From an uncultured Planctomycetales bacterium (GTDB lineage: Bacteria; Omnitrophota; Gorgyraeia; Gygaellales; Profunditerraquicolaceae): 64,000 nt of DNA. Both the position numbers and the translations under genes were made by a program. The notes beneath the pieces are model-generated. The model had not been told where the DNA came from, searched no databases, and worked only from the letters and a program-made list of their open reading frames with translations. Positions 3,901 through 27,900 of this stretch are shown here, one piece after another. Position 1 is the stretch's first letter. Each line of letters opens with the position of its first letter. The stretch lies in contig CAZJFL010000001.1 in NCBI GenBank assembly GCA_964545575.1, positions 153,896 through 217,895 on the forward strand. The letters run 5' to 3'.

Positions 3901-6900
3901 CGAGCATCTATTATCGTTGATGGCGATACTCCGATAGCAAAAATCAAACTTCTCCCCGTCTTCGGAATTAATAGTCAAGCGGCCTTGCCTGGCTAAAGTT
4001 TCCCCTATAGATAAGCGGTTAGTGGCGCGACTCCCCTTGCGCTCTGCAATAACTCCCGGGCAGCCGGGCCGAGTTCTTATTTTTCTTAAAACAGCTAATA
4101 TTGTATTCCCGGTAACCGCATAAACCCACCTTGTACCATCGAGGACTTCTGCCTCGTATACGATAGCGACTAATTTTCCTTTATAGAATACTGAGGCGCC
4201 GCAAATCCCACCGTGGTTTATCTCGGTACCGGTCGTATCTATCTCCAGGATATCCCTTGAGCCGTCGCTACAGAGCACTCGGCGTGCAGGCACGGTAACT
4301 ACATCTTTATAGCAGAATCTATTTCCGCTCCTGGCCTTACTGTAACGTATGAATGGGATGACTACTTCAAATTCGCCATCAAGGGGCGGAACGCCTATCT
4401 CTAAAGAATCAAATTCGGTAAGGTAATTCGGCGCAGGCCCTGCTGGGCCCGCAGAGGGGGTATAGGAAATGCTCGAAATGTATATGACCCCGATATCTTT
4501 GCCGGACTCATCGCAACAGGCCAAGATCCTTCCCATGGCAAAAAGTTTATCTTCTGTAAATTCCGCCATGACCAGGTCTCCCGGCTTCACCCGATGCCCC
4601 ACGGTCAAGACAAAAGCCGCATCCCTGGTTGATCTGATAATCGTCCCCTGATATAAAGTACTCTGGTCTACATCCTCCAGCCCAAGGATGCGCCGTAATG
4701 ACCTGTTTCTTTCTTCGCCTGCGACAAACCCTCCGTCTCTTTCCTCTGCCACCTGCGGCTCGGGCGCAGGGGTGGCGGCAGGCGATAATTTAGGATCGGG
4801 TTTAAACGCTACAGCATCACCTATTCCCTCATAGCCTTCTTTTACCCACTTCATGCGCAGTGGGAGAATGTCGTTCTCTATCCCTTTCTTTCCTCCTTCA
4901 TGCAGGCTATATATTAATGAACGAAGGCTATCGCAAAATTCATCAAATTTCATATCGCAGGCATGATCAGTTATACAACTTAATTTTCCTTCATATTGTA
5001 ATGTAGAGAAGTCTATAAGGAGGACCTTTCCGTTTGTGGTAATGAAAATATGCCGTAGGCTAGAATCGCCGTGAAAAATATGTAGTTCGCGATTAAGGAT
5101 CCCATAGACTCTGCCGATTTCCCTGAAAAAATATCTTTCGTTTGCTAAGAACATCTTGCGGTAATATCGATTACGACGATGCTGATCATCTATAACTTCT
5201 TCGAGGGAAAGGCCATCGCTGATCTCGCGGATTAGTAAAGTGTCCGCCACAACAACGGACGGCGGCGTAATCCCTCTCCGGGAAGCCTTGAGGGTTATTT
5301 TGTATTCGAGTGCGGTGGGGTTACGACGTTTTAGATTTGATGAATGGCGTAGTTTTGCGTAGAAAGATACTGGTCCTTTTTCTGTAGTAAGGGTAAATTT
5401 AAGAACGTATCCGAATATATCTGCTCTTTCGTATAGACCTCCTGGCCCTTCTTCTCCCGCAATCTCATGGGTGCTAGCCAAGATCTTTTTTACTCCGAGG
5501 AACTTTTTAATCGCTGCTTGCTTGTAAAGTATGCATTGTACTTTCTCAGCTACAAACGGTTGCTTTTCCTCATCTACCAAAAGCATTCCAATAAACCGAC
5601 TTATCACCGGCGGAGCGCGGGGACGGCGAGCTCCAGCCATCAATAGCCCGCCGACCAAGAGGCCAAGGATAATTCCTGCCAGAATCGGATTATATATTCC
5701 GTCGGCAAATAAAACCAAAAGTACGACAACGGCAGGCAAGCGGGCAATGGTGGCAGATGAATTTGTGCTGCCGGTTTGCGGCGCCTGCGGCCGAGCAGAA
5801 TCTGTGGGCTTGGCGCGGTCAGGGGCGGCCGCAGGGGCGGCGGGATTTGACTCTGACCAAAATGCCCGTAAATAACTTATAGGAATCTCTGGGTAGCGAT
5901 CGTATAAGACCTGATATTGCTGCTTGATCTTACGCAGGCGTACAAGGTCTGTACTGTCTAAAGAATATAACCTTATTTCTTTGACGACCCTTTTCGCCTC
6001 TCGATCCTGTATTAAAGGCTCGAGTGGCCTATCGTTAAGCTTGGCGACCAGCAGTCTTTCAATAAGTTTGAGTCGGTCTAAATCCCCAAAGAAACGTTCA
6101 AACTCAAAATCTTCTTTTCCAAATAACCAGGCCCACTGCAATGTCGCTTTGATCACCTCGATATGCGCGTGGCGAGTAAAACGCACAAAAATCTCATCTA
6201 CCAGGTCTGCCTCATCTACCGCCGCCTCAAATACCTCATGCGCAAAAGTAACCGGCGTATTTACGCTACCCTTAATATAATAAATACCCGACCCCTGAAT
6301 CTCGGGGCAGGCGATAATAGCCCGGAGTTGTGCCGGTTCGAATACGCCAGCGGAATTCCTATCGCGATAATATTTAACTCTTTCCCATACCTGAGAGTTA
6401 ATGTAAATCGCCTGCGTATGCAGATTATAGTCGCCACTTATTTCTTTGGCCCCTAATCTCCTGCCTAATTCAAGCGGATTTTGATTTAGAGAAGGCGCTT
6501 CTTCCAGGCGAACGGCCTGTGCTAGCTTGCGCCAAGCAGTGGCTATGGCTTCATCTATTTCCGGACAAGAAGGAAATAGTCCTTTCCACTCTTTTATAGG
6601 CATACTCCTTCTCTTTTTTGGAACAATTGGCGCCAATACTTCCTGACTATTATCACCCATGTTAGGTAAATGAACGTGGCCCGGCGCAGGGGCGGTAGAC
6701 GGTACGGCTGGAGACTTCTCCCAAATAAAATGCCATGATCCCACAGGCTCATTCCTGAACCCTCGCTTCAGATAAAAATCAGCCATTATCTCATCGGGTT
6801 CTCGGCCACTTTCATCTTGAACAAGAAAAAGAGGAGTATTAATCAAGGTAATGCGGCTAAATTTATTTTGGCAGAATTCTATTAAGGATCCGGCTATACC

Positions 6901-9900
6901 TCTATTGCGGTATTTTGGATGGACAAAGAAATCATCGAGAGAGACTGCATGAAAATCTTTCAGTGTATATACCAGATAACCAAATACTGTTTTGATTATT
7001 GGATCGACAGCTGCAATTAAATGTGTTATGCCACTCAGTAGCTCTTGGGTTCTACTTTCCAGAATATCTAAGTCAGAGTAACCAGGATCAATTGTTAATG
7101 CCTGACCGATACCTTGTTTATCGTATACAAAAATTATCTCTGGTTTAAGTCTTTCTCTCCCTTTTGGCTCAGGGTAAACGGCCACAGGGGCGGCGGCTCG
7201 ATTTTGCTCTGGACAGGCAGGTGAAGATAATCTCTTTACAGAAACATAAGACAATATTTGTGTACCGGAACAAACATCAACCCAGTCTAGGTCTACCGGG
7301 AAACGCTCAGAGAAATCTTGCCTGCGCCAGAATCTACGCGTGTTTCCTTCATCTACGCATGTGCCGTGAAGTAAAATAATATCAAAACCGCATCTTCTTA
7401 AGTATGGCTCAATAACTCTGCTATACCAAACATAACCTACTCCTTTACCGCGTAAAGAAGAATGGATCTCAAGCTTTTTTATAACTGCCATCCAATTAAG
7501 ATTGTAATAAGACCTTACTGATTTTTGACCGCCTGCGATGCCATGTATCATGTGCTCGTGGTAAGCGCTCGCATCGTTCCATAATACATCCCGAAGAAGA
7601 TCGTTAAGTTCACAGTCACCGTAAGCGATTCCCAGGGTATTTTCTACGCAGAGAGTCAAAGAAGCTGCTTCGCATTCCTTTTCAGCGGCCTCTCCTTCCC
7701 TCTTAAATAATAAGGAAAGGCTTATTTCGCCTTCTTTATAGACGGCTACCCGCGTTTCTAATCTTCCCTTCTCGCCTGTATCATCCATTACTTTTTTGAT
7801 TTCTCGGTACGGCAAAAGGCTATCTGGAGCAATTGTCAAGTCAAACTTTGGTTTTCCGCGCGCATCCTCTATTCTATCGGCGGGCGCAGGGGCGCTGTCG
7901 TCTTGCCTGGCCATTGCCAGCTCAAAACCAACAAAGCAGCCCATTGCGCCGCCTATAGGAGGAACAGGTGCATGATAGGGTAAAGCCAGCGGCACTATGA
8001 TGGTTCCGGCATAAGGATTACGCGAATTATATATATTTCGTTTTTCCGGGTCACTAAGCACCAGATAAGCTTCGATAATCTGACGCATGATTTCTCCCAG
8101 GCGCGCATCACTCTGGCAGATATCCGGATGATAGCGTTTGGTCAATTTTAAAAATTGCCCCTTAATCTCATCCGGAGCGGCATCCTTAGTAACCCCTAAA
8201 ACCCCGTAATAATCTTTTTTGTAATCCGCCTGGACGCCTGCGAATAAATCCCGATACTCTTGTTTAAGCCGCTCGAGCCACTTCTGCAATTCCCGTAACA
8301 TATCCTCGGCCATTATCTGGTCTCTAACCGCCTGCCGTAATAAAGCAGCGCTCTGTTTATTTGAATGCCGGGCATAGATATTTAAAAATAAACCTATAAC
8401 CCCAAAGATACCTCCTAAGATACCGAATAAAAACATAATCTCTCCCAGAGACGGCGCGCCTGTGGCGCCGACGAAACTGAAGACTATAAGGGCACCAAAC
8501 ATGGCCAAGAGGATGCGCTTGGCATTTTTATAGAGCCAGATGATCGGCTTGACTACCAGCCATTTAAAGACCAAGCCCGCCAGTGCCGTTACTCCGCTTT
8601 CCAGCAAACCTCCCTTTTCTCCCACGCCGGGTATCTTATCCGTTGCGTGTGAAATTGTGCTCTTGATGATATATTGTGCCAGCTCCGGATGGTCCTTACT
8701 GATCTCTAATGGCGCAGCTGCCAGGCCAAATGTCGGGACCAAACTCCAGAAAAGAGCCAAGAAATACTTTGGCCTGAAAGCGAAGACGATTAAAGAAACC
8801 ACAAACCTGAAGGCAACATCAATCGCCTCAGGGATTAACCAGCCCCACTCCGCCTTCCCCTGAAAAATCAGCGTCTTCAGGAATGCAACCATTCCTCCGG
8901 CTCCGACGATGGGCGGATTAACCACGCCTAAGACCCCCTTGAGAATTACATGCAGGCCGAAAAGAATAATCATATCGCGGTTATCTTTTGCCTCCATTTG
9001 CCGCCTTAATGATTGCGCTTCTTTTTCATCCAGCCGCCCGCTTTTTAAATCTTCGTCTATCCATTTATTGATGAGCTTTTTGGCGTAGACCAGGATCTTA
9101 TCGGGAATGGTCCTAACCCAGCGGAATATAGTAACGAATTGGTGAAATAATGCTTTTATCTTCCCGGTAAATAGATAAATCAAGGCCTGCTTCAAATGAT
9201 ACAGGGTTTGTTTGAAGGCGTAGTGAAAAGGAATGCATAGCGCCCTGACTTTAACATCAATATAGTCGCATAATTGCCAGAAAAGATTTAATAAATGCCG
9301 GGGTAAACTTTTTAAGGTCCTAAAGAGATACTCCCAATCAAAATGCAACGGTTCGCTTTCCCGCCACATTTTCAGGTAATACACCAGCCTCTGGAAATCC
9401 TCTTCTCTGCCAAGTTCGAGATGGCTGTCCACGTAACGCTTCAGCCGCTTAAGCGCTACTAAATCAGCAAAGACCGGCGAGCGACGGTTCAGTAAACCGA
9501 TGACCCAATATTTTATCTCCCACGGAGTCGCCACCACCGAACCCACTAAATCCATTATCCTGAAATCCCCTCCGGCGGTTTTTACGATATTGGCGAGGCT
9601 GTTCAGGTTAGCGCTATCTATCTGGCGGCCGATGCCGATAAAACCTAATTCTCTGACTAAGAAATCATAAAAATCAGCCGCCCTGTGCCTGAACTCGCTG
9701 ATATCAGAGAAACTATGCCGAACGATGCGGCACCCCTCCAGAAGCTGAAATGCCTGGGCATAGCAGCCGGCTTGGCTGTCATAATAAGTAAAAAGTAATT
9801 CCGGCGTTATATTTGCGCCAAATTCCTGCCTGAAGGCGCGGACAATAATCCTGTTGGAGAAATGGTTAGCCAATACTGCCCAGAGATTATTTTCATAGGA

Positions 9901-12900
9901 ATAGGGGTATCCCCGCCAGAGCCGGAACCAGAACCTGACCAAGGCAATGGCTATCTTCTTGGCGGTAGTCTTGGGCCAGATATGATAATATTTCACCGCA
10001 AAAGTCCGGTCGGCGGTTATATCTTTGGCCTTATATACCGTACCGGAAAGGCCCGCGCCCAGTTCGCCCAGTATCTGGATGGTAATGTTACCGGCTCCGT
10101 AAGTCCGGATGTCCTTGACATCTCCTGTTTTCGGCTCTACGCTGCTCACTTTTCTTCGGTCTAATGGCGTAACTACGTCAATAATCTCGGTGCTAAAATC
10201 TGAAGCAATCCCCGGTACCACTGGTTCACTTCTATCATCCGCAGATAACCGGTAGTCATAATGCAGGCCGAAGAAACGCATCACGGAAAACAGCAATAAG
10301 GCCGGGATATAGAATACGGCCGATTCGGCAAATTCATAGACTGCACCCCAGGGGTAGAAGCGGCTGCGCTTTAATAATTCATCACAAAAGTACGCATACC
10401 ACTTCAAATGCCCCTTAAGGTACGGTTCTTTTTTATAGCCGTTCTCGGCAAAGAATTTTAGACTGAAGGCGCGCCGGACAATCAAGTATTTTGTAATTTG
10501 TCTAGAGATAGTTATATTTGGCGTAAGATAAATCGTCCTGCTGACGGGGATATCTTTGCCTCCGAAAATAGCAACCATCGTGTAATCTGCGCTTAGCCGG
10601 ACATCCTCAGCCAGCGCAAGCGCCGCAAGCAATTCTCTATCGCCTGACTTCTCTGCCTGTTGCTTTAGTTCAACGCGGACTTCCCTGATACGTTCTTCAG
10701 GGCTCTTTTTTAAATATTGCGTCAATCTTAAAAATGCCGGAAGGTCCGTAAACGGGAAGTAGCCGATTAAAGGCAAAGCGGAAATAAAGACTAGAGTGCC
10801 AAACACGACCATACTCATAATGCGCAATGGTGCGGGGGTACATAAAATAAGGGCAATGAGCGCGAGGGGGATTAAATTGAGGCCTACGGCAACAAGGATT
10901 TTTCTCGCCCAGTCCGGCTTCGAATTCTTGCCCTGCCATCCAGAACCATCCCTGAGGGCGGATTTTGTTTTAGCTAAAACGATAAAGGCAGAATTGATTT
11001 CCTCAACAGTCAACCTGCTCAGGTCTTTTAATACCATATGCGCGCCAAAACTACGCAATGTCTCTATATCCCCTAAGCCGATAACCAAACCAAAATTACC
11101 GGATATTCCGGCCTTAATATCAGCATCGGCATCACCGATAACTATGGCCTGTTCAGGGGCAACGCCCATTCTTTTGGCAGCAAGCAGAAACATCTCCGGG
11201 TCAGGCTTGCCTCGCTGGACATCCCTACTTGTGATTACCACATCGAAGTTATTCTTTAGGCCAATCTTCTCTAAGATTTCCGGTGTAGCATCAGAGCCAG
11301 AACCAACCACCAGCCTAATCCCTGCCTCGCGCAGCCGGCTTATTAGCGCAAACGTTCCCTGGATTTTATTAACGCCTCTTAACTCTAGTAGCTGCATATA
11401 ATATTTCTGCCGCTCTTGAGCCATCAGTAAAACCTGAGCATCAGCCAATCCGGGAAACATCATCTCTATAGAAGTAGTTTCTTTCCTACCGTTAAGCCGC
11501 TCTTGAAAATATTGCATAGTTACTTCCGGGCCGCGGTGGGCCTCAGAGAGCATCCGCCAAGCCTGGAAATGCTCCTGAACGGTATCGATGATCACGCCAT
11601 CACAGTCAAAAATTACGGCCTTAAAGGAACTGTTCGGGGATAACCCTTCAGGGGACGCTTCTCCGATTGGCACAGGGCCTGGTCCTGCTTTGGCGCGAGA
11701 ACTGTCCCTGAAGAAAGTAAAGAGCCCGTAGGCCAGCGCTAAGAAAACTAAGGCAAAGAAGATAAAGTACGGTATCGCCGGGCGCGTAATCAAAGCGGCT
11801 AAATCTCGAGCGATAAATTGCCAGGTGCCGCTCTGAGTAAGAGTAATTTTAAAAACAGTAAAATAAGGCCATAATTTCAGCATTAAGGAATCAGAAACCA
11901 GCAACCAGCCGAAAACAAAAGCGCACAAAACCGCTGCCGCCGCAAAAGCATAGTAGGTAGGCTTACGCTGGGATTTAAAAACGGTTTGAACCATTCCGCG
12001 CAGTTCATTAAAGCGGGCAAGGAATTCGCCGCAGAAACCTTGATATTTGCGATGTAGCGGCTCATGGTAATCTCGGATGGAAATCTGGAATATTTTCGGC
12101 AGGTATTGGAACGCGGGATGTTGTCCTTCGGGCGTAGCAATATAAGTAGTTAACGCAGGCGGGCCTTTAATCAAACCGGCTTTTTTGGCATAGATCCGGA
12201 ATGCCCGCAGCACAAATAAGCCCTTTACTACAAAAACCAGACCGGCCAAAGCAACTAATACTGTCAGACCTAAACAGATTTTTCCTAACTGGGGGACGCT
12301 GTATACGAAGCCGGCCGCCACCAGAAAAGCAATGAAGGCAAATCCGAAATCCTCCAGCGCAGCGGATTTAGCACTTGCCGCTTTTAACCGCCATGGTCTT
12401 AGGATAAGAGCCCCTCTGCTTTTTTTCTGAATAATCATTTTAACTGCTGAAGAAATATCTATTGGCTTGCCACTCTTCTTGATTGCCTTATTTATCGCGG
12501 CAGAGGTCCAGCCATAACTGATAATCCGGCAGGCATCCCTATACTTTATTCTGGCTTCATCTAAAGCCGCCAAGCCGGCTTTTAATCTTCCCGTAAAAAC
12601 CTTAAACGCCTTACTGCCCAGCCAATCTGTATTATTGTATTTTATACGTTGCCTGTCAGGACGCGAAATTAAACCGTTCTCAACATACTTCTGGCGAAAA
12701 TAAGCTGCTTTATTTAGCTCTTTTACCCTGCGCTGGCCCGCAACATTAGCTACCACGGTTAGATTATCAATAATCTGCTGCGCTAATGTTTTAGGCAACC
12801 TCTCGGCTCTCAACGCCCGATAGAACTTCTTTCTAAATTCTGCTTCTGCTTTTTGTTTTAAAGAAAATCTTCTACTCCTAATCGTGCTTTCGCGGAAAAG

Positions 12901-15900
12901 CTTTATTTGTACTTCCCGAATAAACTTTTTCACAAGTTTATCTCGTTTAAAAATTTCCGGATCCAAGGTTAACCTTACTAACATCCCCTTAACCAGGGCA
13001 GGGTTAAATTTAAGACTCTGGAAAAATTGAAGATCAGACCAGTCAAGACGCGCGCTTACCGTTCCGCAGATATTGAGAGAAATGCCCGCCCTCCCCATCG
13101 CCTCTGCAAGAGCCTCTAAATTAATCCTTCTCGCATCTTGCTCTTCCGGTTCCGGCGCCTGCTCCGGCAGAAGCAGCTCAGGAACCAATCTCTCCAGCCT
13201 GGCAACTAATCCTTCCAGCAATTTCCGCAAGCAGCGGTCCTGCTTTTTTAAACGCCTGATCATCTTGCGCAAATCTCTAAGCGTCTTCTGGGAATCAAGG
13301 ATTCCCGTATCGGTATCGCTGTCTCTGATGCTCTTGCCACTGCTATCCACTAATTGAAAGCCTTCTAATTCTCTAGCTTCCGGTGTTTCCTCGTCTCCCT
13401 CATCTTCTAAAACCACCGGCTCTACCTCGTCATCAACCGCATTGGCATCTTTATCATCGTCTGGCTGCTCTTCTTCGGATTCAAGCTCTACATTTAATAT
13501 TTCAGCTGCCTCTGCTACTACCCGGGATAATTCGGATAAATGCAATCCCTCTGCCCTCTGCTGAATCTCTAATAATAAAATCTCATCCGGCAACTCGAAG
13601 ACAATATTTACCGCCCCGAGAATAATATCTAAAATCGGGCGCGGGACCGGCTGCTGATTTATTTTTCTGGCCTTAGCCCAAGCCTCGTATTGGCTCCACA
13701 AAGAAGCATCCTGGCTGGTCTTTAAGGTGCTGGCCCAAAGCATAGCCATGTTTTCCTGATCAGAAGAGCCTTGCGCTTCTAAACGGCGGGCCTCTTCCAT
13801 CGCACCCAAGGCTGCCTTAAACTGCTTAAGGAATTCCGGTTGAGCAAGAATATACTCTAACAACTGCCTTAATCCTTGCGGCCCGGGCAGCGGAGTAAAA
13901 ATCACTTTGCCCTTTAGCTCCTTAGGCAACTGGTTTTCCTTTAATCTTCCGGAATAGACCGCGGTAACCTGCGGCAGGCCGAGCATCCCGAAGTCATTCG
14001 GCCCGTCGCCGGAAACAAAAACTTCTGCCAGCGGAATTTTCAGGCGTTTGGCTAAAGCGGCTACCGCATCTTTTTTATCCACCAGCGCCACATCCACGGC
14101 AACTGAGGAATAGACAATATTCAACCCTTGAAGGCCTTCTAGGCATACCTTCAGTAACTCGACAAAGCGCAACAATTTAGCGCGCAACTCTTCTTTAGTA
14201 AAGAATAACGAAGCCTCTGAATATTTTTCGTGCACCTCTAATCCCCCCGAGGTTAGAGATTTTTCCAGGCCTAAGCTGCGCGCCGTATTTTTTATCTCGC
14301 CAACTATCCGCTGCCTTAAATCATCCGGCATTTGGCGGCTTAAATCTTTATCTAAAACCAAATCTCCTTTTTGGTCAAAATGCCAGACACAGCCGCCGCC
14401 TTCGGTGAGAATATGGATTTGCCGGCGGTATTTGATTCTGGCCTTCAGGGGAATGCGGTCGCAGAATAAGGTTTTTAAACCCGGCATGCTTCCTACTAGC
14501 CCCATTGCCCGGCCGGTAAGCACGGCAAGGTGGCTTTCCTGCTCTAATGCGTTAACTAGCAGCGCCAGCATTTCCGGAGAAATCGCCTCACGAAAATCCG
14601 CCAGATTATCATCATAGTCGTGAACATAAAGCTTAAACGCTTTCTGCCCATCGGCAGGATATCCCCTGATATCTATACTTAATCCGCAAGGAACATCGCA
14701 CAGAGTAAAGAGATAATCCGGCAGATATCGCTTGATCGAATCGGCTAAGCGCTTCTTCCACAGCGAACCCTGGGCTGACCTTAAGCAGGCCAAGAAATAA
14801 TCGCGCGCCAACATTACCCATTCCAAGAGCCGCGGCAGTATCGGGCCAAAGACGCCAAGGATACTGGCGATAGTGGTGATGATAGTGGTGGTGGTTACCG
14901 CGCTTAAGCCTAAACCAAAGCCTTCTAATTCAAAGTGGCGCGTCATTCTGGCGCGTTCCCTCTCTTTGGCTTTCCTAAAAGCCGTTGTTCTAAGGTCTCC
15001 AATCGTTTCTCTGTAGCGGGCAATCCTTTCCCGCAGCCCGCCGTTATCCGCAGCTGATATCCTAATCCCGCACAATAGCCTTGCTGCCCGGTCAAAATTA
15101 GCTACTGCTTCTGCGATATCCGGTTCTACTAGAAGGTCATCGGGCTGAAGCTGCCATATCCCTGCGTTAATAGCAATATCTATTTCTGCTGTTAAGATGT
15201 GGTTATTAATCGTTGTCCTGTAAATCGCCTTTACCTGTTGGCAGGTCATTTTGGCACCATTAATCTGATGAGTGGAGAAGGCCCGGGGAGGCATGCTGTC
15301 CAATATTGCCTGTGCTTGCCTAAATTTGCCGAGGGCTGCCTCTGGATCTTTGACCAGCGCTGCTAAGCCTTCGCGAATAAGGATAATCATTTCCATTTTG
15401 CTGATGAGAATAGCTGCTTCGGCCTCGGACTTCCGTAATTCTGCCGCTATTTTTTGCAACTTAATGTAGCGGCCAAAGAATGCCGCCTTCTCAGCAGGAA
15501 TGATGGTTTCCAAAATCTCTTTGGCTTGCTGATAGCGCGCCAATTCCGCCCTTAATTCCTCCAGAGTCTTCTTGCCGTTTGCCTGCTGCGTGGGCGCTTG
15601 CTGGAGCTGTTTAGCCATTCTAAGCTTACCAAGGATAGCTTTTAATCCCTCATAATCCGCGCAGATCTCTTTTTCTATAAAATCCCGCCAACCGCTATAC
15701 ATTACCACCTTGGTCCTTGCTTCTTTAATGAAGCAATAGAACCTGCCGCGAAAAGTAAAGCCTAAATTTTGGATGCTAAGAGTCAGGTTTTTGGAAATCT
15801 CCTCTATAGCTTTACTGACTACATATTCTTTCCTTTTCCATCTATCTTTCTCTTGGGGCAGAGGTTTATATTTCAAGCCGGCTAAGCGCGCTGCCCGGCG

Positions 15901-18900
15901 CATAGCCGTCTCCCATTTTATTTTCCATTCTTTATGATTACTGGACCAGGCTTTTTGTATATCATAACGCATTTTATTATCCCTGAGATATTCCAAAACA
16001 AGGTTATTGCGGAATCCCTCGTTCTTTTTAAATTCTTCTGCTAACTGCTGGATAAATCTTTCCTTTGTCCACTTAATGTGTATGGCCTTATACCCCCTGG
16101 CTTCCAAAAGCGCGTACCAATCTGGGTAACCATAATGCTTATGATATACGAAGGCGCCCATAAGCCCAGAATAACTATCATAAATCGCATCATAATCCGT
16201 GGTTCCCAGCCTTTGTATGGTCTTATCCAATTCTGCGCAAAAATATGGCCAGGTCCACTTCGTCATTTGCGTCCTTGCGTCAGTACGTTCAATACCCGCC
16301 TCCGCTACTGCAGCATCAAAGTCCTTAAATATTTCCAGCCTTAGCAAATGCCTGTACCAATTTTCCAATCTATGGTATTTGTTTTGAATAATATACGCTG
16401 AAACATGCCCCTCTTTTCTGTAAACCTCCCTCAATTGCTTACAAAACGCCTCTTTTTCTTCCTGAATCACGCCATTAAAACCTTTCTTTATAGAATCTAT
16501 TCTTTTTCTCCGGGCAGCATCGAAACGCATCTCTGATTCTAAAAGCCGCTTTAACATATCCTCTACAAAATAGATGAATCTCCACTTATTAGCTCTGGGC
16601 TTACGGGAAGCGTCCGGGCTAATCTGGCTTATTCTACCCATATATGATTCTATACTGCTGATTTGCCTTTCTATAAGCTTGGCTTCCGGGTCGGGGCTGG
16701 TGATGCAGAGTAATACATCTTTGCGCTCAAAAATCCTCAGCCATTTACACACCACTTCTATAGAATATCCGCATGATAAAGCCGCGGCAGTTTGACGGAC
16801 GGTCAAACTGGCCTTGCCCATTCTTAAAAGTTTGGCATTAATCCTAAAGGCCTCAGCTACTTTATCCGGCTGGACGAGTCTGATAAACTCATCGCTTGAC
16901 AAAAAATCTATTTTCTGTAACGCCTTTAACTGGATATTATCTAAGTAACTGCATTTAACAAAATTACTCCATTTCAAGTCACGGAACTCTCTGGTATTAG
17001 CCGGGTTAATAAAACCGGCAAGGCTGTTTATAATCTTGTTGATCATTACGGGAGAAAGGCGCTGCCTGACAAAGGCGCTCCGGAGAATCTCTATATTTTT
17101 AGCCCGGCATTGTAATCTTTGGCGCCTATGAGGCTCTTTTCGATTAACGGAGGAAACTGCCGGCACCGGCGGGAAGGTAAATAAGACATTCGGGGAATAA
17201 GCGAAAGAAAACTTTGCCAAAAACTTTTCCGGATAAAGCAGGTAGGATAAAATTTTGTCGCGGATAAACTCAAGCGGCGGGGCTTTGTTCCAAATGCTCC
17301 AGCGCATAATCTCGTCGCGATAATTATAAGCGGTTAAATAGACAAGCATAGCCAAACCAAGGGGGCCGGCACCGGCACAAAAAACAGCGCCTGCCGATTC
17401 AGTTCTTCTTTTTCTGCGGGAGCTTCTATACCTCCAGTTAAAATGTTGCATAACCAGGCCCTTGACCTCCCTCTTTACCTTGCGGATAATCCGCAGTATC
17501 TCGACTCTGTCAATATGATGACGTTTTACCAATTTATCCATGATTACGTCTTCTTCGAAGCCGAGCAGAAAGCCCCTTAGCCAATCAAGGAAAATTTTCC
17601 GTTCCTGAACCGTAAAACCATTAGTTTTAAGTTCTCTCCTGAAGGTATCGAATATTCTGGCTAGCGCCCTGTTATAACCATAATCCCTGCCGGGCATTGT
17701 TTCTTCCAAGGTATCTTTACCGTCTTCGTCGAACCCCTCCACGCACATATCTAAAGATACAGGGTTATTCCGGAAGGCTATACCGCGACAGTAGAACGCA
17801 TCCTGAATAGCTTTTCTAATCGCCCCCTTGAGGTATTCCTCAAAACCGCCTTCTCCGGGCTTGTATTCGTCTGATGCCTTATCAATACCGGACATTAATC
17901 CCAAGTTTCCAATACCGATTAATTCCTCTTCCCTTAAACCGCGCGGATGAATGATCTCTTCAAACACCTGAATGACCAGCGGCAGATAATGACAGATAAG
18001 CAACTCTCTAAACTCTTTACCGTTACCTTTAAGCAACTCAGTAATTGCTGCGCTTAACTGTTCGTCACTCAAGCGAGGAACGGTTTTCAGTTCATGACGA
18101 TATACTTCTGCTATATTACACTCGCCCCTCCTGCGAAGTCCCACTTTCATAACAGGTTTTTTTGCGCGCTTTCGCCTAGCAGCAGAAACAGACTCAAGCC
18201 CCAATTCCCTTAAATTATCCGCCAGGTATTCTGCAGTAACTTCTCTTCCATTGCGCAACTCTTCAAAAACCAGAAGGAAAAAATGCAGCAAGCCTATTCC
18301 TTTCTGGCTTAAGTTTCGCCCACCCCCTTGCCTGATCAATAACCCTAGCTTGCTTAATTTCTCTAAATGCAGGTGGAGTGGCTTAAGGTCACCTGTTTTC
18401 CCCCGGCCTTTAAGGGGGTGGCCGTACTGTTTCAACAACTCTATGATTTCTGAATTACTCCTTCCGTTGGCAACAGCTAAAAATATAATCAGCCTTCTTG
18501 TTGATAATGTGTGTAGCACAGGAAGCTTATAGATTACGCCGCTCTCAAAGATAGCCGTAAATTCATCATCCGAAAGAAAGCTGGCCCTCTGGACAGATGT
18601 TACTCTTGCGCTTTTAAGCGCGCCGGCAATCTCTTCTTCGCGCATTGAATCAATGGCTTCCATAACTTTATTACCTCGAGCAGAAAGCGCATAATCTCTA
18701 CCCTCTTTTACCACCAGGCCCCTTTTGATAAATACCTCCAAGCTCCTGCGTATCCGCCTGCGCTCTAGAGGAGTAGTATCGACTAAAAGCGCATATTTAG
18801 CCCAAAGCTTTCTGAATCCGGCAATCAGCGGCCTCTGGTCTGCCAATGCTTTAAACAGCGCATCAAGATCAGCCGGGGAAGAGGCGCTTTTTAGTATTTT

Positions 18901-21900
18901 TTCAGAGACAAAATCCTTGATCTCCTGAGAAGCGTAACAATAGGTATCCTCTGGATTAGAGAGCAGAAAACCGTCACGCACCATCTTCTGTAGGGTGTAT
19001 CGCACAATTGCCCGCTTCATTCCTGTAGACCTGTAAATCTCAAATATATTGCGCTTGCCTTTGGCAATGGCAAGCAAAACGATAATTACCGCCAGCCTCG
19101 CGATAGTCTTCTTTTCCCGTAAAACACCCTGCTCAGCAGGAAAAAGACGCCCCAAGACTACCGCCTCTATTGTATTTAAACCGAGCCCCTTTACCGCATG
19201 CTCAAAAGTAAATTCTTCAAATTTCGGAGTATATCCTAAGCTTATCAACAAATCATTTGGCTCCTGCTTAGTATCGGCAAGGTAGCCAAGGACTTTTTCT
19301 TTTATCTGCGGGCAAAGCGTATAAACAAATCCTATTCTCGCTGCCAATCTCTCCCCTACAAGGTTCCTTAAGACCTGTTCTACTCTAATCTTATAATTAA
19401 ATAATACGCCGTATGCCCGCCAAGGACGCGTATCATATGTCATATCCAGATAATTCCATAATTCGGATGCGCTGAAATAAGCTGATGGCCCGTTGAGCGC
19501 ATATCCCTCTAATACTGCTATCAGCGGCAAGAGCAAAAACGCGTTGTGCAATAAGCCCTTCATCTTATTATCCCAGGGAAATTCTAACAGCTTCTGAAAT
19601 TGTGTTTTAAATGCCGCGTCTCTTTCGGAAATAGAAACAGGCAGTCCGAAAGATACCCTGACGTCCCTCAGGCGCCTGCCTAAAGCGCGTAATTTCTCGG
19701 GGGCAAAAGGCCTTTGCGTAGCTTCTCTTATCGTTTCATCTATAAGAGACGTCAATCTTGCCGGAAATGCCTCTTTTGTAAGCCCGGCTTTACGCAAGGC
19801 CTGAATTTTATGGATAAGCTGCGCAAACAGAGCGGATAAAATTGCATCTTCAAGCCGGCCGATAAGGGAGCGGACCTGGTAAAAAATACCTTTGCTAAAA
19901 TAACGGTTAATCTCCTCTACGGTAATGATGGAAAGGAAATCCCATAGTTGGTATAAATGCTGCGCTTCTTTACTAGAAGAAGGCCGCATTAAAAGCTTTA
20001 CCCGGGCAATAGCATCTAAGAGCATTTCCCTACTTAGCAGCCCACGTACTTTTCTGAGCGGCGTAGGATAAAAGCGCGTTATTGCCCGAGCGGTATCAGT
20101 CTCTGCAGCCTCGATCTTTATGGTTTTTCCGTTTTCAATCCAGACTCTTAGCGTAGCGCCGTAATGGCGAATGGAAACGTATATCTGGCGCTCAATCGCA
20201 ATCCTGCCCTCTCTGTTTAATTTTAGTGTGGGCCCTTGCAAAATAATAATCCGCCCGGCAAACTTCCCCCGGTGCAAGGAGAGCATTACCTTTCTCTTAT
20301 TGCTCGGGAAAGAACCGATTATCTCTTTAGTCGCGGCATCGCGCATAAGGTTTAAATCTTCTCTTTTTTCGTTATCCGCCGCCAGCCTCACCCAGAATAA
20401 TATCCCTTTCTCAAAATAAGCTTCAATATCCTGTCCCGCAAAACGCTTAAAGTTATTGAAATTCTGGTCGGCAAATTCAAAACGCCCCAGCCGCGTCAAT
20501 CCCGGCAGCCGGGTGCGCAAAATGAGCTGCTTATGCAGCCTATTAAGCTCCTCCCAGCGGGTAGCTGAAACGCCCCAGCTGGATTTGTAAAGAGATTTGC
20601 CTGCGGGAGTGAGAATCTCCGTAAAACGCCTTTGCTTAAGATAACGCGGCCTTTGCGTTTGCGACGCTGTTTCAGCTACCGAAGCTGCTGCGCAACCCAA
20701 TCCCATACCAAATAGCTTATACCACTGCTGCATAAAACCGGAAAAGAACCAGCATAAAGCCGCAAAAACGCCAAGCGCAGTAATCAGAAAGATAATTTTT
20801 TTGCCGGTAGAAAGCCGCGGCCAGAAAACCTCCAGCCCGCCTAAACCGCAGGCAAGGACGCTATCGTCATTGTATTCGCCGTCGGCGTTAAATGGCCGGA
20901 CGCTGCGGTCAACATCAAGCTGCTTATCTTCTGATGTCGCGTCATCCGGAACCGGGCGCCTTGCTGCCGTAGGCTGCGGCTGAGTTTTTTCCCTGACGCT
21001 TTCCGGATGCGGGTGCTGCTTGCCGTTTCTTAATCCTGCCAATATAAAGGCTAAATGTCTTAAGTCTTCCTTTATAGGCATAAATGTTTCATATCTTAAA
21101 CTACTCTCCTCGGCATCGGCAAGTATAGAGCAAATCTCTTTTATCACTACTGTTAATTCTTCTAACACTTCTTTCGCTAATCGGCGCCTTAAATTAGGGG
21201 CTAAAGCCTCCAGAATATTTTCTGTCCGGCTGAATAAATCTAATGCCCTGGGAAAATCCTGCCGCACTATGGCTTCGTGCGCTTCGGAAATTATCCCGCG
21301 GATTTGTTGCGTCGGAGTAAGCGCCTTTGCTTTCGACGCCTTCTGCTGTGGCGTCTTCTGCTGCGCTGCTTGTCCTCGCTGGCTTTGCTGCCTGGCTGCT
21401 TCTTGCCGGGCTGCTTCTTGCCTGGCTGCTTCTTGCCGGGCTAATTTTAGCTTGGCTGCTTCTTGAGTAGCTGCTTCTCTGGTAGCATATCTGGCTAATT
21501 GTTCCCCTGTCCTGCGGAATGCCGCCGCTGCCTGTCTTTTAACTACCATCCTAAATTTCATTTCAGCTATCTTGGCCTGCCTTTGAGTTTCCCGTTTTTG
21601 CCTTGCCTGCTCTCGCTTCTCTAATTCAAGCCTTTTCTGTTCTATTTTCTCTTGCGCTATGGCTCTTCTTGCAGCTTCTCTTTTTTGTCGTTCCTCACTG
21701 ATAATCTCTTCTGTGTCACGGATTAACTGCCCAAGGTCGATCTTAAGCTGGCGCAACTCTTCTAAAACAGCAGCCTTAATTTTCGCCAATCTCTTTTCTT
21801 CGGCTACCGGCAACTCCAGGCGTCTAAGCATAACCTGATATCTTCTTAACCGCTGCAGCGGAAAATATTGCACTGCTTCTTCCAGGTCTAATCTTGCCTG

Positions 21901-24900
21901 CCGTAACTTACGAACTACAATGTGAACAAATACCTCATCTTTCATCTCCTGTCTTACGCGTAATCTCTTGGCTTGCCGCTCTGCGCCAAGCGCAATCAGC
22001 TTATTACGCAATTGTGCCACTAAGGCGTCTGCCCTAGCTAAAACCCGCGGCGACTCCTCTTTGTCTAACAAGCGTCTCAACCGCCCAAGATAATAATCGC
22101 AACGGGCGATTTGTAAATGTGGCGATATTGCTTCCATGCCTTCTAGGCGCCCGGGCAATTCTCGAATTAAAGTTTCCAAAGTCTGGCGAGGGCGAGAGGC
22201 GGCCCTGATCACTAAGCCCAAGGCAGTCAAATCTTCCCGCGCAGGAGCACTCTTATTATTTTGTAAAAATCCGAGTAATCTTAAACCTGCTTCAGTCGCC
22301 TCCGAAAGATGTTTTCCTTTTGCCAAAATCCCGGACTTCCTTAGTCCCATAAAATCATTGCGCACCGCTTGCGCCGAAGGCAATCCCAATTCTTCCTTTA
22401 TCTCTTGCGCGCTTAAACCGGCTAAAAAGTAAACGTATACCTGCATTCTTTTCTGTCCTTTTAACTTCTTCACCAGCGCTCTGGCTTGCTCCAGAGTAAT
22501 CACTTTTTTCCGGTATTTTGCGCCCCATTTAGTTACTCTTTTTCCCTTAATCAATTTTAATCTTCCGGCAGCAGCGGTATCAAACTGCCCTGCTTCTATT
22601 AAGCTGACTAATTCTTGGCCTTTGGCAGTTAACTGCCTTGCTGCGTCAATTAAGCGTAATTCCTGAAGTTTAGCCAGCATATTCTGGAGGCTTCCGTAAC
22701 TTATCTTTAGGCTCTGGGATAATTCCCTTCTCTCCCTGAGGCCAAAATTAATCCCCAAAAGCACTTTCATCCAGCTGGGTAAAACTTTAAGTTGTTTTCT
22801 TAATGCTTCGGGTAAAGCCATATATTTTTTCCATAGCCCCTCCAGTTGCGCCGGGACCGGCCGGATATCTTGCAGCCGGGGATCAGGGTTTTTAAATTCA
22901 AGCTCCAAGGCATACGCAGTTACCCTACCGCTCAATACTCCCGCTACCAACGCCTCTCCTTTCCCGCTCAGATGAAAAGGCGAAGGGCCTTGCTGAATAT
23001 AACCCCAGCCCGGTTCATTGCGCCTCTGGCGGTAAATAAATGCCTCGACATCATTCGGCTTCATCCCGGTCAGGCGGCTGATGCTAAAGGTAGTATTTTT
23101 TAAGCGATAAGGAAGCCTTCCGGAAACAAAAAGCGCCAAGAGAATAGTAAAGTGCTTTATTTTGACCGCATTTTTAGCGCTCAATTTCGCAAATACCTGT
23201 TGATAGCGCGCCAATTCACCACTTGTCAATATTTTTTCAAGCAGCAGGCCGCGTTTTACATTTTTCCAGTTAAATTCTTTAAAGTGCGGCAGGCCGTTCA
23301 GCTTAGCGCCCACGAGATCCTGCGGGTACGGCGTGGTACGCATGACCATAGCTGCCGCCAGAGTCAATAAGTGGTGTTCTCCGAGTGGCTGAACTAAAAA
23401 TTGCATTATTCCGCCGTGGGCGATAAATTCATAGGCGCTGCGCGCTAACTCTTGGCCTTGCGGATTATAGCAGATATAATAAACCGATAAAATTACTCCT
23501 ATAACTAGCAGCCCCAAATCAAATAATTGCACGCTGCCTCTTGCCTGTCCGGGGGTATCTTTATCCGGCGCAGGAGCGGATGTTTCTTTCTGAAATAAAA
23601 GCAGATATTTCCTAATAGTCCTTGGGGCGATATCGACGTTCGACTTTCCCGCCATTCTTATTGACCATTTTTCTCTAAATAAACCGGCTATCATAGACGG
23701 TACTAATTGGGCGGCGCTACAGCCCTGCTCACGGCATATCTCTTGAATTATATCCCTGGCCTGTAAATAGCCGTATCCCGTGCCAGGAACCAACAGCGAA
23801 AGAGGATAAACTTTACCCTTATACATTATTTCCTTTATTCCTTTTAAGAGCTTAATTACCGTGGTGTAATTAAAACCTATGGCCTCTGCGATATCGCGCA
23901 TATAAAGCGGGCAAAGCGAAACCATATTGCCATTTTCCAAATACTCCTTTTGCTTTTCAATGATTGTGTTTATCGCCAACAGTATAGATGCGCCGGGCAA
24001 TGGCTGCACAGGTAATCCATTCTGCATTTTCTCTAAAGCGCCTATTATGCCGCTATACGGAGCGCCCATCTTAAGATTTATAAAACCTAAGCGCCTGATT
24101 TGTCCTTCCTCGCTGATAAAATCTACAGAAGCTCTTTGCTTATATTTATCCCATAAGGCAAATAGTTTATTTCCTACCATCACCGCCTCTTCCTTTACAG
24201 CTGCCCGCATGCGCCAGAGATTGATCCTTCCGGTAAGTTTATGAGTAATGATTTTAGCGACCGCCTCTTCTATCTTTTTATCCAACGCTTTTGCAAAATC
24301 ACAGAAAGAACCATCAAGGTTCCAATTGTCAACCAGGGCGCCTATTTCATTAAGAACGGCTTTTAAAATATCTTCTGCCAGTTTATTGATTTCTTCATAA
24401 GCATAGAATATCTTCAAGGCGCTTACGGACCATTCAAAAGTATCAGCCATATCTTTGGCTAACCTATATTCATTCGATTCTGTAATGCGGCCCTGGTGGG
24501 CTTTGAAGTTATCGGATTTTTTTACCTCCTCAGGCGTGGGATGGTCAAACCCCTCCACATAGGTAAAGGCATTGGCAAACTTAGCCCGGAAATTATGCTC
24601 CAGCCAATCTAAATAAACCTCGGTCTTCTTCTCCTTTGCGCAAATAGCAAATTCTAATCTTGTAGCTAACTGGTGGTCGCCAAAAAGCTCTTCCCCTTTT
24701 TCATGTAGCGCAACATATCCTATAAACTCATCAGGAAACAAATCTCCGTCTACCAATAGAAAATAGCGTCCGTCAATAAAAATAGCCAGGCCCCCTAATT
24801 CTTTCCAGAAGAGCTCGAATGAAGGCTCGTCTTGATAATCCTTCTTTTTAATTACGCTATACTCAAAATCTAAACCGTGTCTCTGATAACGCCTCAGCCC

Positions 24901-27900
24901 TCCCGTCCTTCGTGCGGCCCGGCGGCAAATTTTAGGAACTACCTCTGCCAGATATTTATAAATACCTTCCAATTCCAGGCGTAGCTGCAGAATTCTTATT
25001 TCTAGCCTTTGCACCAACATCTGCCTTAGGCTCAAATCTTGACGCGTCTGCAGCACTAGCCCCAGCCCCAACCTCGTAGAATAATGCACCGGAAGAGCTG
25101 GCTCATAAGAAATATTGCGCTTAGTCGGCTTGATATCTGGCTTGATATAGCGATCCCCGAAGGCTGGAATTGGCAGAACGGTGGCTTCTTCTTTCTGCTT
25201 TTGCCAAAAGAGACCCCCTGCTTCAAGCAAATTCTTTAATTCCGCGTAGATATATTCTAATGCTGATTGGACTTCTTTTGCCTCCCAGTCAAACTCTCTA
25301 CCGGGCATGATACGCGCTGCAGCCGGTATCCCCAATATCTGCTTAATTTTCAAAAGTATATTGTGGGCTTTCCGATTAGTAAAACCATGTTCATGTAAAT
25401 CTGCCTCAAAAGCAATTATTCCTTGAAGCAGAGAGCTGAATAACTCTCTGGCTAAACGCTTTAGTTTCTCTTCTTCGCTTAACTGGACAGCGCCTTCTTT
25501 TTTATCTTCCGGTAGAGCAGGACGGTTAAGGCAAAAGCGTTTTCGCCCCACAGGCAAATTCTTTAATTCGGCAATAAGATAGCTTAAGATTCTTACTATC
25601 TGCGGCGAATCCCATTGAATAACCAACCTGGTAAAATGAACTCCAGAATTCAAGCCTAAGCCTTGATGGATTTCTTTACAGATACGCTTTATCTCAGCGG
25701 AGTTAAAACCGAGCCGTTGTAAAGCAAGCTCAAGGCCGATACGTCCGCTTTCGGGTAAGGGCTTTAATAACCTTATGGCGATACGCTTTAAGCCTGCTTC
25801 CTCTGTATCACTTACATCCTTTATGCTGCATCCGGCAGGGACATTCTGGAGGGTAAATAACCAACGGGGTAGGATTTGTTCGATAAGCGTAGCGATGGTT
25901 TCGGCGATAGGTGGGCCCTGGGCGCTGCGCAGGCAGGCCAAGAGATAATCGCGCGCTAACATTACCCCTTCTAATAGCCGCGGCAGGATCGGGCCAAAGG
26001 CGCCAAGGATACTGGTGATAGTGGTGATGATAGTGGTGATGGTTGCCGCGCTTAATCCTAAACCAAACGGCCAGAAAACGTCCCCTTTTGCCTGCTCAGG
26101 GGTATTTTTATCCGGTAAAGGTTGCTCTCTACTTTGGGCAGAGTACCCATCCGCTCCCGCTAATCGTCCCAACATAGTCATTTTCAGGCCGGTAGCAATT
26201 TTACCCAATAAACCGGGGACATAAAGATAAGCTTCGATAATACTGCTAAAGCCGGCTTTTTGCGCTAAGTGGTTTAAGAAATATAAATTCTTCAGTAAGA
26301 GGGTGATCTGAAGCGGGATAAATACGCCGTGCTTTTTTAGGCAAACCACTACTTCGGATAAACTCTGTCCGGAAGCCAAGCTCTCCAGCCTATTTTGTTG
26401 AGCAGCATTATCCATTAACTGCTTTACTTCCTGCGCAATCGCTTGCCGCTGGCTGCTTAACGGTTGATTTTCGGCTAAGCCAAAAAGGTAATCCAGGAGC
26501 TGATTGATTTTAGCGCCGGCGCCGGATAATTTTGCCAGGCCGCGCATTAATTCTCTTTCCTGCGCGCCTAATTCGAGGTAGAAGTTGCGGTCCAAAATGG
26601 CTACCCGGCCGTCAGGGGTAATGCGGAAGTTGCCTTCATGGGTATCGGAATGCACCAAGCCCAACCCATCGCCCAGCTGTTCTAAGTAATTCCGGATAAT
26701 CAAACTGACTATCTGCCGGTAATCTTCCTGCGCCACCACTCCTTGGGTTAAATCCGTGCTCTCCCCGATCTTAAGCTGCGTAAGATTGACCCCCTCGATA
26801 TATTCTTCGCGCTTGAGGTAACGGTAGTTAGGCTCAAAACTCTGCGGTACATAAATCGAGAGTCGGAAACCCTTTGGCCGCCAGCCATTATATCTTTCTC
26901 TAAAGCGGCGGTCATTTTCTAAGAAGCGGGTATCATTGATATCGCTGATTAACCAGCGCTCCAAATCCGGCAGCACGCTATCCCGCAACATAACATAGAT
27001 TTTATTTTCCGGCTCCTGCTCGATGAGTAAATCTAAAGTCTTTTTAAGCAAGGCCGCCATTTCTCTGATCCGCGCTTCGGCATTGGGGTTTAAAACTTTG
27101 AGGATATACTTTCTGCCGCTCTTTTCTTCTACCAGATAAACACTCACCAATGACCCGCCTCCGATACGCTCTACTAACCGGTCTTCGGGGCCTAAAAGCC
27201 CGGGCGCTTCCCTCTTAATGGTCTCATGGGCGGAAAGTTTAGACTGGCCGTGGATATCGTCATAAACCCGGGAAAATTCTTCCTGAACCGCTGGCGGTAT
27301 ATCTATATACTGACCTAAAACCTGCAGGCAACGCACGCCGAGGGCGCCAAAATGCTCGGCAACCCGGATAATTGCCGTCGGCCCGGAGAGTTTCTGCGTT
27401 TGTGGCGGATGGCGGCATTCCTCGGGAAGCTCGACAAAAATAGCCTGTTCTGCCGAAAGTAATTTTTCTACCTGACCAAGAGCAGAAAAAGCATAGCGGC
27501 TGGCTTTAGCCACCAGGCAGTCACCCTGAGTTTCATATTCTCTGCCATCCTTACCGGCACAGGGGCAGTGTAATCTAGCATCCCAAACCCCTTCATAGCG
27601 CACCTCTCCGTGTATATCACGCGTATTCTCTAAGAAATCCCGTACAAGCTCGGCAAAATCGTTCACCCTATTTTCCGGACGCCCAAAGATAGCCTTGACT
27701 AAAATCGGCGCTAAAAGAAAATAAAGGTCTTCTTTAGAGGAAACGCTGATAAAGGCCTTGACTATCCGCTCAACTGCCGCTTCATGCGCCTCGGATACTT
27801 CTACCTGATGCTCGATAAACTGAGCGGCCAGCTCTTCTACTTGCCCGGGATGATTAAGGATTCCGTTGGCGGGATCGGTTAAGGCCTTACGCAGCAGCAT

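Follow-up and report, generated by a model that had tools for sequence, protein, structure and literature searches.

The question raised by the locus described here is whether a sigma factor can be part of a giant membrane protein and, if it can, what such a domain may still do there. The window under study (the whole stretch of 64,000 nucleotides that was analysed) comprises positions 153,896 to 217,895 of contig CAZJFL010000001.1 from a genome assigned to the Omnitrophota (GenBank assembly GCA_964545575.1). The original prediction, made from the DNA letters, placed a sigma-70 region 2-like module at window positions 17650-18200 and described it as embedded in a membrane mega-protein. The setting was borne out: the window is covered by a single stop-free reading frame on the minus strand with 21,333 codons and zero stops, and the encoded polypeptide contains many transmembrane helices, with 52 hydrophobic segments counted at a Kyte-Doolittle value of at least 1.6 over 19 residues. 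The frame is open at both window ends and the gene is therefore longer than 64 kb. No other stop-free stretch of at least 300 amino acids is present in the window. An ordinary open reading frame (ORF) listing shows almost nothing of this window; frames that leave the window are omitted there. Residue n denotes codon n of the window-wide frame throughout and ends at window base 63999-3(n-1).

1..63999, minus strand: fragment of a giant gene for a multi-domain protein with many transmembrane helices (stop scan, hydrophobicity, Pfam)

A predicted sigma-70 homolog in the giant reading frame

The sigma motif named in the original prediction (ELIGIGNLGLM...DK...G..F..Y....IRKAIQDAF) was found literally at codons 15359-15402 on the minus strand (window 17794-17925), inside the interval given for it. 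Homology to sigma-70 region 2 was upheld and is predicted to extend further, from region 1.2 through region 2.4 to a 3.2-like linker and a sigma4-like helix-turn-helix (HTH) domain. The match had also been called strong, which overstated it: Pfam and NCBIfam scores both stay under the curated cutoffs, and intermediate sequences, custom profiles and a fold comparison were needed. The Pfam check that had been proposed fell short, with a sub-threshold match to PF04542 (14.9 bits, cutoff 24), which surfaces only when a short segment is scanned on its own, and none to PF04545; more broadly, no Pfam region 4 match (PF04545 or PF08281) was obtained in the module. All 18 weak NCBIfam matches are to sigma-factor models, including RpoS, SigF/G, WhiG and RpoH. 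A sequence search of the PDB returned 32 weak matches, 31 of them sigma factors, and the best single-sequence match was RpoS (5h6x).

Bridging sequences were obtained from an exhaustive phmmer search of residues 14900-16099 against 1.84 billion (1.84e9) representative proteins, which yielded 11 matches. Seven of them, proteins of 175-348 residues, cover residues 15262-15433 in their alignments (whole-library E-values 6.8e-6 to 8.5e-4), and these sigma-like proteins are the sole matches to the module stretch among all representatives searched. Pfam Sigma70_r2 is found in every one of the seven (above the cutoff in six), and most also carry region 3 and region 1.1. In reciprocal blastp comparisons, the best match of each bridging protein within the giant protein was the module (E 8e-14 to 1.5e-8; 28-36% identity over 101-167 residues). 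The same holds for E. coli RpoD, RpoS and RpoH, with 27-38% identity over 65-118 residues.

A hidden Markov model (HMM) was built from 119 bona fide sigma factors, with the module excluded, and found one match in the 21,333 residues, at 15295-15378 (23.8 bits, E 1.3e-9). Among 201 controls of the giant protein (its reversal and 200 local shuffles), no score exceeded 4.2 bits. Alignment of the module with the 119-sigma alignment by hhalign gave a probability of 96.1% (E 3.3e-9) and ran collinearly across regions 1.2 to 4 except for sigma3, which is passed over. For fold comparison, an AlphaFold2 (AF2) model of the module was built from the single sequence, with no borrowed alignment. This model has low confidence; its top 50 Foldseek matches in the PDB are all sigma factors, the best being sigma-S (6uu7_F, E 9.6e-4), with Foldseek probabilities of 0.87-1.00 that reach at least 0.95 in 45 of the 50, in a score to which sequence also contributes.

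The scores under the curated cutoffs could be taken to indicate that a helical, charged segment resembles the sigma consensus by chance and shares no ancestry with sigma factors, and a very long protein does offer many openings for a spurious match. Several observations argue against this explanation. The E-values of 6.8e-6 to 8.5e-4 were reached in 1.84 billion proteins with matches that are all of the Sigma70_r2 type; 23.8 bits compare with at most 4.2 bits in the shuffled and reversed controls; the hhalign probability is 96% and the 50 leading Foldseek matches are sigma factors without exception; and over about 110 residues the match stays collinear and the hydrophobic core is intact. Chance likeness is extremely improbable, effectively refuted, and can be set aside for practical purposes. 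As judged from its sequence, window 17428-18117 (minus strand, residues 15295-15524) encodes a genuine, highly diverged member of the sigma-70 superfamily. It is not classed as a working sigma factor, given that the curated cutoffs are missed and that the residues expected to define function are gone.

Architecture of the module

Five elements are distinguished in the module, given here in the order of the polypeptide.

18025..18117, minus strand: region 1.2-like helix, residues 15295-15325, NIAEVYRHELKTVPRLSDEQLSAAITELLKG (RpoS model, PDB 5h6x, 119-sigma HMM, hhalign)
17872..18024, minus strand: regions 2.1-2.2, residues 15326-15376, including RGLREEELIGIGNLGLMSGIDK (PDB, Pfam, phmmer, HMM, hhalign, blastp)
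17788..17871, minus strand: degenerate regions 2.3-2.4, residues 15377-15404, DEYKPGEGGFEEYLKGAIRKAIQDAFYC, with an insertion of 3-4 residues (alignments, residue map)
17686..17787, minus strand: region 3.2-like ("sigma finger") acidic linker, residues 15405-15438, NNPVSLDMCVEGFDEDGKDTLEETMPGR / NNPVSLDMCVEGFDEDGKDTLEETM (hhalign)
17428..17685, minus strand: compact helical HTH domain of 4-5 helices, residues 15439-15524 (single-sequence AF2 model, collinear with sigma4)

In real sigma factors it is the region 2.2 helix that docks on the beta-prime clamp helices. The AF2 model of the sigma2 part shows the four long helices expected of this domain, with a predicted local distance difference test score (pLDDT) of only 50-65. 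No sigma3 domain was found between region 2.4 and the linker, which is where hhalign skips it. In hhalign the linker aligns with the consensus '..p.SLe.pvGeEed..L.D.i.D', and taken alone the linker is not significant.

The HTH domain gave a better model when predicted alone from its single sequence (pLDDT 79.7, predicted template modelling score 0.70, core above 90). Its Foldseek list, which is non-significant throughout, is rich in sigma factors and isolated region 4 structures (1ku7, 6onu and 3hug; target-normalised TM-score 0.56 for 1ku7, and 0.64 at a root-mean-square deviation of 3.2 for 6onu), and it also includes homeodomain, KorA and FixJ-type HTH domains. With hhalign, the C-terminal domain alone obtained a probability of 0.3%. 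An mS41 SAM identity suggested by Pfam (E 0.082) was rejected as spurious. The domain is collinear and compatible with sigma4, and we infer its sigma4-like nature from this collinearity together with the predicted fold class. No second copy of the module was found within the 21,333 residues, and the few internal repeats of the giant protein lie outside it.

Functional residues

A common profile served to align the module with E. coli RpoD, the 119 sigma factors and the seven bridging proteins; positions are given in E. coli sigma70 numbering. Retained in the module are L384, V387, L404, I405, G408, N409, G411, L412, M413 and K418, together with F427, Y430, I435, R436, A438 and I439. Replacements in regions 2.1-2.2 comprise D403E (D in 119 of 119 sigma factors), Q406G and E407I (E in 118 of 119), and further changes are F419A, Y425G and T440Q. 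Five near-invariant positions that belong to recognition and melting of the -10 element are replaced as well, all of them non-conservatively: T429E (T in 118 of 119), W433G (W in 108), W434A (W in 117), Q437K (Q in 118) and R441D (R in 101).

Two sets of positions are of special interest. Positions D403, Q406, E407, N409 and M413 of region 2.2 are those implicated in binding of the beta-prime coiled coil (clamp helices), and Y425, T429, Y430, W433, W434, Q437, T440 and R441 are those that serve -10 recognition and strand opening. Of the second set only Y430 is kept, along with the neighbouring F427. The first set is split: N409 and M413 are kept, and D403E, E407I and Q406G are changed, which leaves the surface partly retained; a lack of the RNA polymerase-binding residues had been named in the original prediction as grounds for refutation. 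The free-standing relatives differ from the module in this respect; D403 is present in all seven and E407 in six, with the tryptophan pair lost as in the module. The pattern suggests that the residues determining the fold survive, that the DNA-opening set is essentially gone and that the core-binding surface is half changed.

A captured sigma gene as the favoured reading

The reading that we favour, with a probability of roughly 0.6, is that the module derives from a captured sigma gene whose product still folds, has lost canonical promoter opening and would now be a "pseudo-sigma" on the membrane's cytoplasmic side. A free-standing sigma gene of group 2/3 type would have been captured in frame by a giant gene that grew through accretion. 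The group 2/3 type is proposed because region 1.2 is present and because the best matches are RpoS, SigF/G, WhiG and RpoH. Unrelated Pfam domains are tiled along the frame, including PGK, a group-1 glycosyltransferase (GT4), an ARMT1-like phosphatase and an ABC1 kinase, as well as peptidase M48, HAD hydrolases, DnaJ, several GNAT acetyltransferases, TPR and HEAT repeats. Many of these unrelated domains are of cytoplasmic enzyme type (PGK, glycosyltransferase, HAD, GNAT, DnaJ, kinase and peptidase) and share the frame with the module, which is the context expected of accretion. A relic of gene fusion had been one of the options raised in the original prediction, and among those options it has the best support.

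In the captured module, the sigma2 domain would still fold because the hydrophobic core and the 2.1/2.2 helices are conserved. The role of a promoter-specificity subunit is most likely lost because of T429E, W433G, W434A, Q437K and R441D, to which D403E, E407I and Q406G are added. At most, the module and the HTH modules near it may dock weakly, either on DNA or on RNA polymerase at its beta-prime clamp helices. It could instead be a mere folded passenger whose frame stays open since a stop codon here would cost the protein thousands of downstream residues.

A number of points weigh against this reading. The score for PF04542 (Sigma70_r2; E 0.024, profile positions 4-65 of 71) lies under the gathering cutoff, and the best NCBIfam model, TIGR02937 (E 1.7e-5), reaches 24.5 bits against a cutoff of 42.9. 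The AF2 model of the full module has a pLDDT of 60.6, and the statement that the domain still folds is a prediction. The sigma4-like assignment meets difficulties of its own: the Foldseek comparison of the HTH domain with the PDB is non-significant (best E 0.83), a sequence match for this domain is absent both in Pfam and in the PDB phmmer search, and when the linker and C-terminal part were aligned by hhalign with a region 3.2-4 profile, the score of the real sequence was equalled or exceeded by 12 of 200 shuffles. The transmembrane helix adjacent to the module (residues 15535-15557, described below) is borderline, so that the topology is a predicted one. No ortholog of the module was found in the protein, genome and metagenome searches. 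Lastly, loss of the canonical residues is no proof of loss of function: the nearest free-standing relatives are also without the tryptophan pair, and extracytoplasmic function (ECF) sigma factors lack it as well.

Searches for relatives and for a different origin of the module were made at several levels. A word-indexed protein search with the 261-residue module and with the surrounding 2,181-residue stretch gave no match at E <=1e-3, not even to the query itself. When related loci were sought in genomes and metagenome contigs with the module as query, pattern matches were obtained and none was confirmed by tblastn. A degenerate DNA pattern for LIGIGNLGLM had 0 matches in genomes. Eight metagenome matches to IGIGNLGLM were rejected as chance occurrences, in reading frames that are tiny or signal-peptide-like and give no sigma-profile score. 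A nested gene was likewise rejected, with promoter-like and terminator-like sites at the level of shuffled sequence, as was a recent foreign insertion, with a G+C content that is uniform at about 0.45 around the module and 0.467 in the whole window. Nor does anything at the module point to an assembly chimera.

Membrane context of the module

Two hydrophobic features frame the part of the giant protein in which the module is located.

17329..17445, minus strand: basic stretch RYRSSRRKRRT, then a hydrophobic segment rich in Gly/Ala, SAGAVFCAGAGPLGLAMLVYLTA, at residues 15535-15557 (Kyte-Doolittle value 1.76 for 19 residues)
20740..20796, minus strand: strong transmembrane helix, residues 14402-14420, IIFLITALGVFAALCWFFS (Kyte-Doolittle 2.39)

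The helix at residues 14402-14420 is the nearest strong transmembrane helix upstream of the module and is followed by the basic cluster RPRYLKQRR. It bounds a soluble stretch of about 1,100 residues that takes in at least two winged-helix domains and ends with the sigma module. Because basic clusters stand at both ends of this stretch, the positive-inside rule suggests that it faces the cytoplasm, the module included. On the downstream side, segment 15535-15557 is rich in Gly, Ala and Pro, and a hand-calculated estimate on the Hessa scale amounts to about +2.7 kcal/mol; as this value is unfavourable, membrane insertion is not assured. The candidate membrane tether beside the module is this one borderline hydrophobic segment. 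About 10 basic residues separate it from the last HTH helix, and Pfam detected no anti-sigma domain (zinc-finger/ZAS, zinc-binding anti-sigma) between the HTH domain and the hydrophobic segment. NCBIfam gave no match for the soluble stretches 14440-14975 and 15558-16360, and a PDB search of the upstream stretch 14440-14975 also gave none.

This arrangement invites the explanation that the module is a working, latent sigma factor, tethered to the membrane and freed by regulated proteolysis to bind core RNA polymerase and turn on a regulon. The giant protein would in that case report its own state, for example contact with prey, to transcription. A complete collinear layout (1.2, 2.1-2.4, 3.2-like linker, sigma4-like HTH) with a basic stretch and a hydrophobic segment right after it fits such a role, as do the retained N409, M413, G408, L404/I405, F427, Y430 and R436, the confidently predicted fold of the C-terminal HTH domain and the peptidase M48 domain in the same reading frame. 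There is also precedent in fused, proteolytically activated sigma factors (PMC8999054). The residue map argues the other way: D403, E407, T429, W433, W434 and Q437, none of them found in fewer than 108 of the 119 sigma factors, have all given way to other residues, mostly non-conservatively. Release would require cuts on both sides, with about 15,300 residues lying upstream; no ZAS domain is recognisable, and the gap between the HTH domain and the hydrophobic segment, at about 10 residues, is short. The sigma4 identity is also unproven and the hydrophobic segment borderline. A latent sigma factor is decidedly unlikely.

Downstream of the module, residues ~15849-16035 (window 15895-16455) consist of tandem homing-endonuclease-associated repeats (PF18780). 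Database relatives of these repeats are proteins built solely of such repeats, and one free-standing relative starts with a lipoprotein-like signal. This is weakly consistent with a location of the repeat part outside.

Neighbouring HTH and sigma-54-like modules

The original prediction had further drawn attention to winged-helix segments at about 22.6 kb and to a transcription-factor-like block. The segments were recovered on residues 13745-13800 as matches to wHTH-PRTase_assc, MarR_2 and HTH_45, and the block holds up as a grouping of weak HTH matches. Three features make up this cluster outside the module.

18637..19086, minus strand: two winged-helix domains just upstream of the module, one MarR_2-like (residues 14972-15018) and one HVO_A0261_N/HTH_45-like (residues 15058-15121); E 5e-5 and 2e-6, under Pfam gathering cutoffs
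22327..22767, minus strand: winged helix (residues 13745-13800), then an HTH_11/ECF-region-4-like HTH (residues 13825-13891) (Pfam)
23842..23985, minus strand: short sigma-54 DNA-binding-like fragment, residues 13339-13386 (Pfam PF04552, NCBIfam rpoN models)

The winged helix at 13745-13800 (window 22600-22767) scores 26.6 bits with wHTH-PRTase_assc, against a cutoff of 27, and the HTH at 13825-13891 matches HTH_11 (E 1.9e-4) and Sigma70_ECF (E 0.018). With PF04552 (cutoff 22.8), the sigma-54-like fragment reaches 24.8 bits (E 2.1e-5) over profile positions 25-71 of 160 in a scan of a 300-residue piece, and it is matched by five NCBIfam rpoN models (best E 1.9e-5). Located about 2,000 residues upstream of the sigma-70-like module, it is a second kind of sigma remnant in the giant protein.

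With the sigma-54 DNA-binding-like fragment and no fewer than four HTH or winged-helix modules, the sigma module forms a cluster within about 2,200 residues, which fits an idea of the original prediction, a tether or sink for RNA polymerase. Here the region 2.2 helix would dock on the beta-prime clamp helices without promoter opening, and core RNA polymerase, as well as DNA bound through the flanking HTH modules, would be kept at the membrane. Such a tether could couple transcription, translation and membrane insertion of a very long gene, or it could sequester polymerase. Retention of the sigma2 fold and of most of the 2.1/2.2 helix, with the DNA-melting residues lost, is the pattern expected of docking only, and the likely cytoplasmic orientation, deduced from the basic clusters, agrees with it. 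The docking helix itself is altered at the near-invariant positions D403E and E407I and also at Q406G, which argues against the idea; binding to polymerase is putative, no conservation was found in any other protein, and the published giant-protein catalogues do not mention a role of this type. We regard a tether or sink as unlikely.

The most far-reaching version, in which a giant membrane protein carries its own RNA polymerase-docking module, either for recruitment to the membrane or for a signal-triggered release that reprograms transcription, is quite improbable. If recruitment is true, the sigma-like domain and the HTH modules beside it would draw polymerase and DNA to the membrane, and transcription, translation and insertion of a gene longer than 64 kb would share one location. 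Either version would connect a giant surface machine directly with gene expression and would be the first known case of a sigma-type regulator embedded in a protein of tens of thousands of residues. The captured, still folding pseudo-sigma with at most weak docking is preferred.

Comparison with known systems

Among the closest known systems are the group 2/3 sigma factors (RpoS, RpoH, SigF/G and the WhiG/FliA type). Like these, the module has region 1.2 leading directly into regions 2.1-2.4, with helix order and hydrophobic core in common, and it ends, after a 3.2-like acidic linker, in an HTH domain. It departs from them in its location within a polypeptide longer than 21,333 residues, whereas they are free-standing proteins of 25-35 kDa. 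It further lacks sigma3, has D403, E407, T429, W433, W434, Q437 and R441 replaced, scores below the family cutoffs and has a region 4 that is undetectable by sequence.

ECF sigma factors, which lack region 1.2, offer a second comparison. Several are fused to transmembrane anti-sigma-like extensions (IutY/ECF243, SCO4117/ECF52, ECF48, ECF53 and ECF36), and proteolytic release has a precedent among them (PMC8999054). The likeness to the module consists of a sigma part joined to a membrane-spanning segment, borderline in the module, and of sigma2 plus a sigma4-like domain with no sigma3. The known fusion proteins comprise a few hundred residues, with the sigma part N-terminal (C-terminal in ECF36) and a zinc-binding anti-sigma domain before the transmembrane helix (PMC8999054). 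In contrast, the module has region 1.2, no anti-sigma domain that could be seen, about 15,300 preceding residues and a borderline hydrophobic segment. On its predicted architecture, it is not an ECF-fusion protein.

Among free-standing proteins, the nearest relatives are P0005, P0007 and P0009-P0011 (246-272 residues) and P0008, with the 28-36% identity to the module given above. They share with it the absence of W433/W434 and, mostly, of Q437. In contrast to the module, they are free-standing, keep D403 and (except P0008) E407, and have a sigma3 domain and mostly region 1.1. Sigma regions 1.1, 2 and 3 are found in most of P0005, P0007 and P0009-P0011, and all five lack both region 4 and the W433/W434 pair; in P0009 the one region matched was region 2, just under the Pfam cutoff. 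These five may constitute an uncharacterised class of truncated sigma-like proteins. P0008 (L007, 10001-11047, assembly GCA_964349095.1), the closest full-length relative, has 348 residues and a weak Sigma70_r2 match, and its gene is accompanied by infC-rpmI-rplT, argS, ileS and recO. It looks like a very divergent housekeeping sigma factor of a fast-evolving organism.

The giant protein itself belongs with a known type. Giant multi-enzyme membrane proteins of Omnitrophota have been described (West-Roberts et al. 2023, bioRxiv 10.1101/2023.11.21.568195; Nielsen and Lui 2026, bioRxiv 10.64898/2026.06.07.730766), and the window gene resembles them in its dozens of transmembrane helices, its many unrelated Pfam domains (GT1, HAD, GNAT, TPR, HEAT, peptidase and kinase), its length of more than 64 kb and a sequence without close relatives. 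With more than 10,000 residues, many transmembrane helices and many distinct, non-repeated Pfam domains, it shows the features that define the class, and it matches the "multi-enzyme" class of bioRxiv 10.64898/2026.06.07.730766. A sigma domain is not mentioned in the text of 10.1101/2023.11.21.568195 and 10.64898/2026.06.07.730766, or in one supplement of the latter, and no paper that couples sigma factors with giant Omnitrophota proteins was found in the literature searched.

Other features of the giant gene

Domains that are typically cytoplasmic and of housekeeping type (PGK at 61243-62088, the DnaJ J-domain at 8026-8214 and others) alternate with transmembrane helices along the giant protein. 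A unit of about 82-110 residues occurs three times with 70-75% identity, at residues 10387-10496, 12624-12733 and 16361-16442 (window positions 32512-32841, 25801-26130 and 14674-14919), and carries a Thr/Ile-rich hydrophobic stretch LGLSAATITTIITTITSIL. This is the sole sizeable recent internal duplication that was seen. At window positions ~21000-21900 the AT skew falls to -0.45, which coincides with a charged, low-complexity part of the protein. A weak DnaX-tau-like match in this stretch is probably compositional, and a plus-strand ORF of 148 codons (21020-21466) overlaps it.

Implications for giant genes

Giant proteins of bacteria that run to tens of thousands of residues have hardly been characterised, and the published catalogues, which use standard domain cutoffs, would miss the present module, which reaches 14.9 bits where 24 are needed. 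If RNA polymerase binding persists, a giant envelope protein would be physically linked to transcription; if it does not, the module would provide a clean natural example of a pseudo-sigma. In both cases it cautions against equating domain matches in giant proteins with functions. A sigma-factor gene, and not enzyme genes alone, appears to have been absorbed into the giant protein, and this supports the growth of giant genes by in-frame capture of whole neighbouring genes. The module may also serve as a datable "fossil" for how captured domains decay or are reused, and it is a well-supported curiosity that informs the assembly of giant genes.

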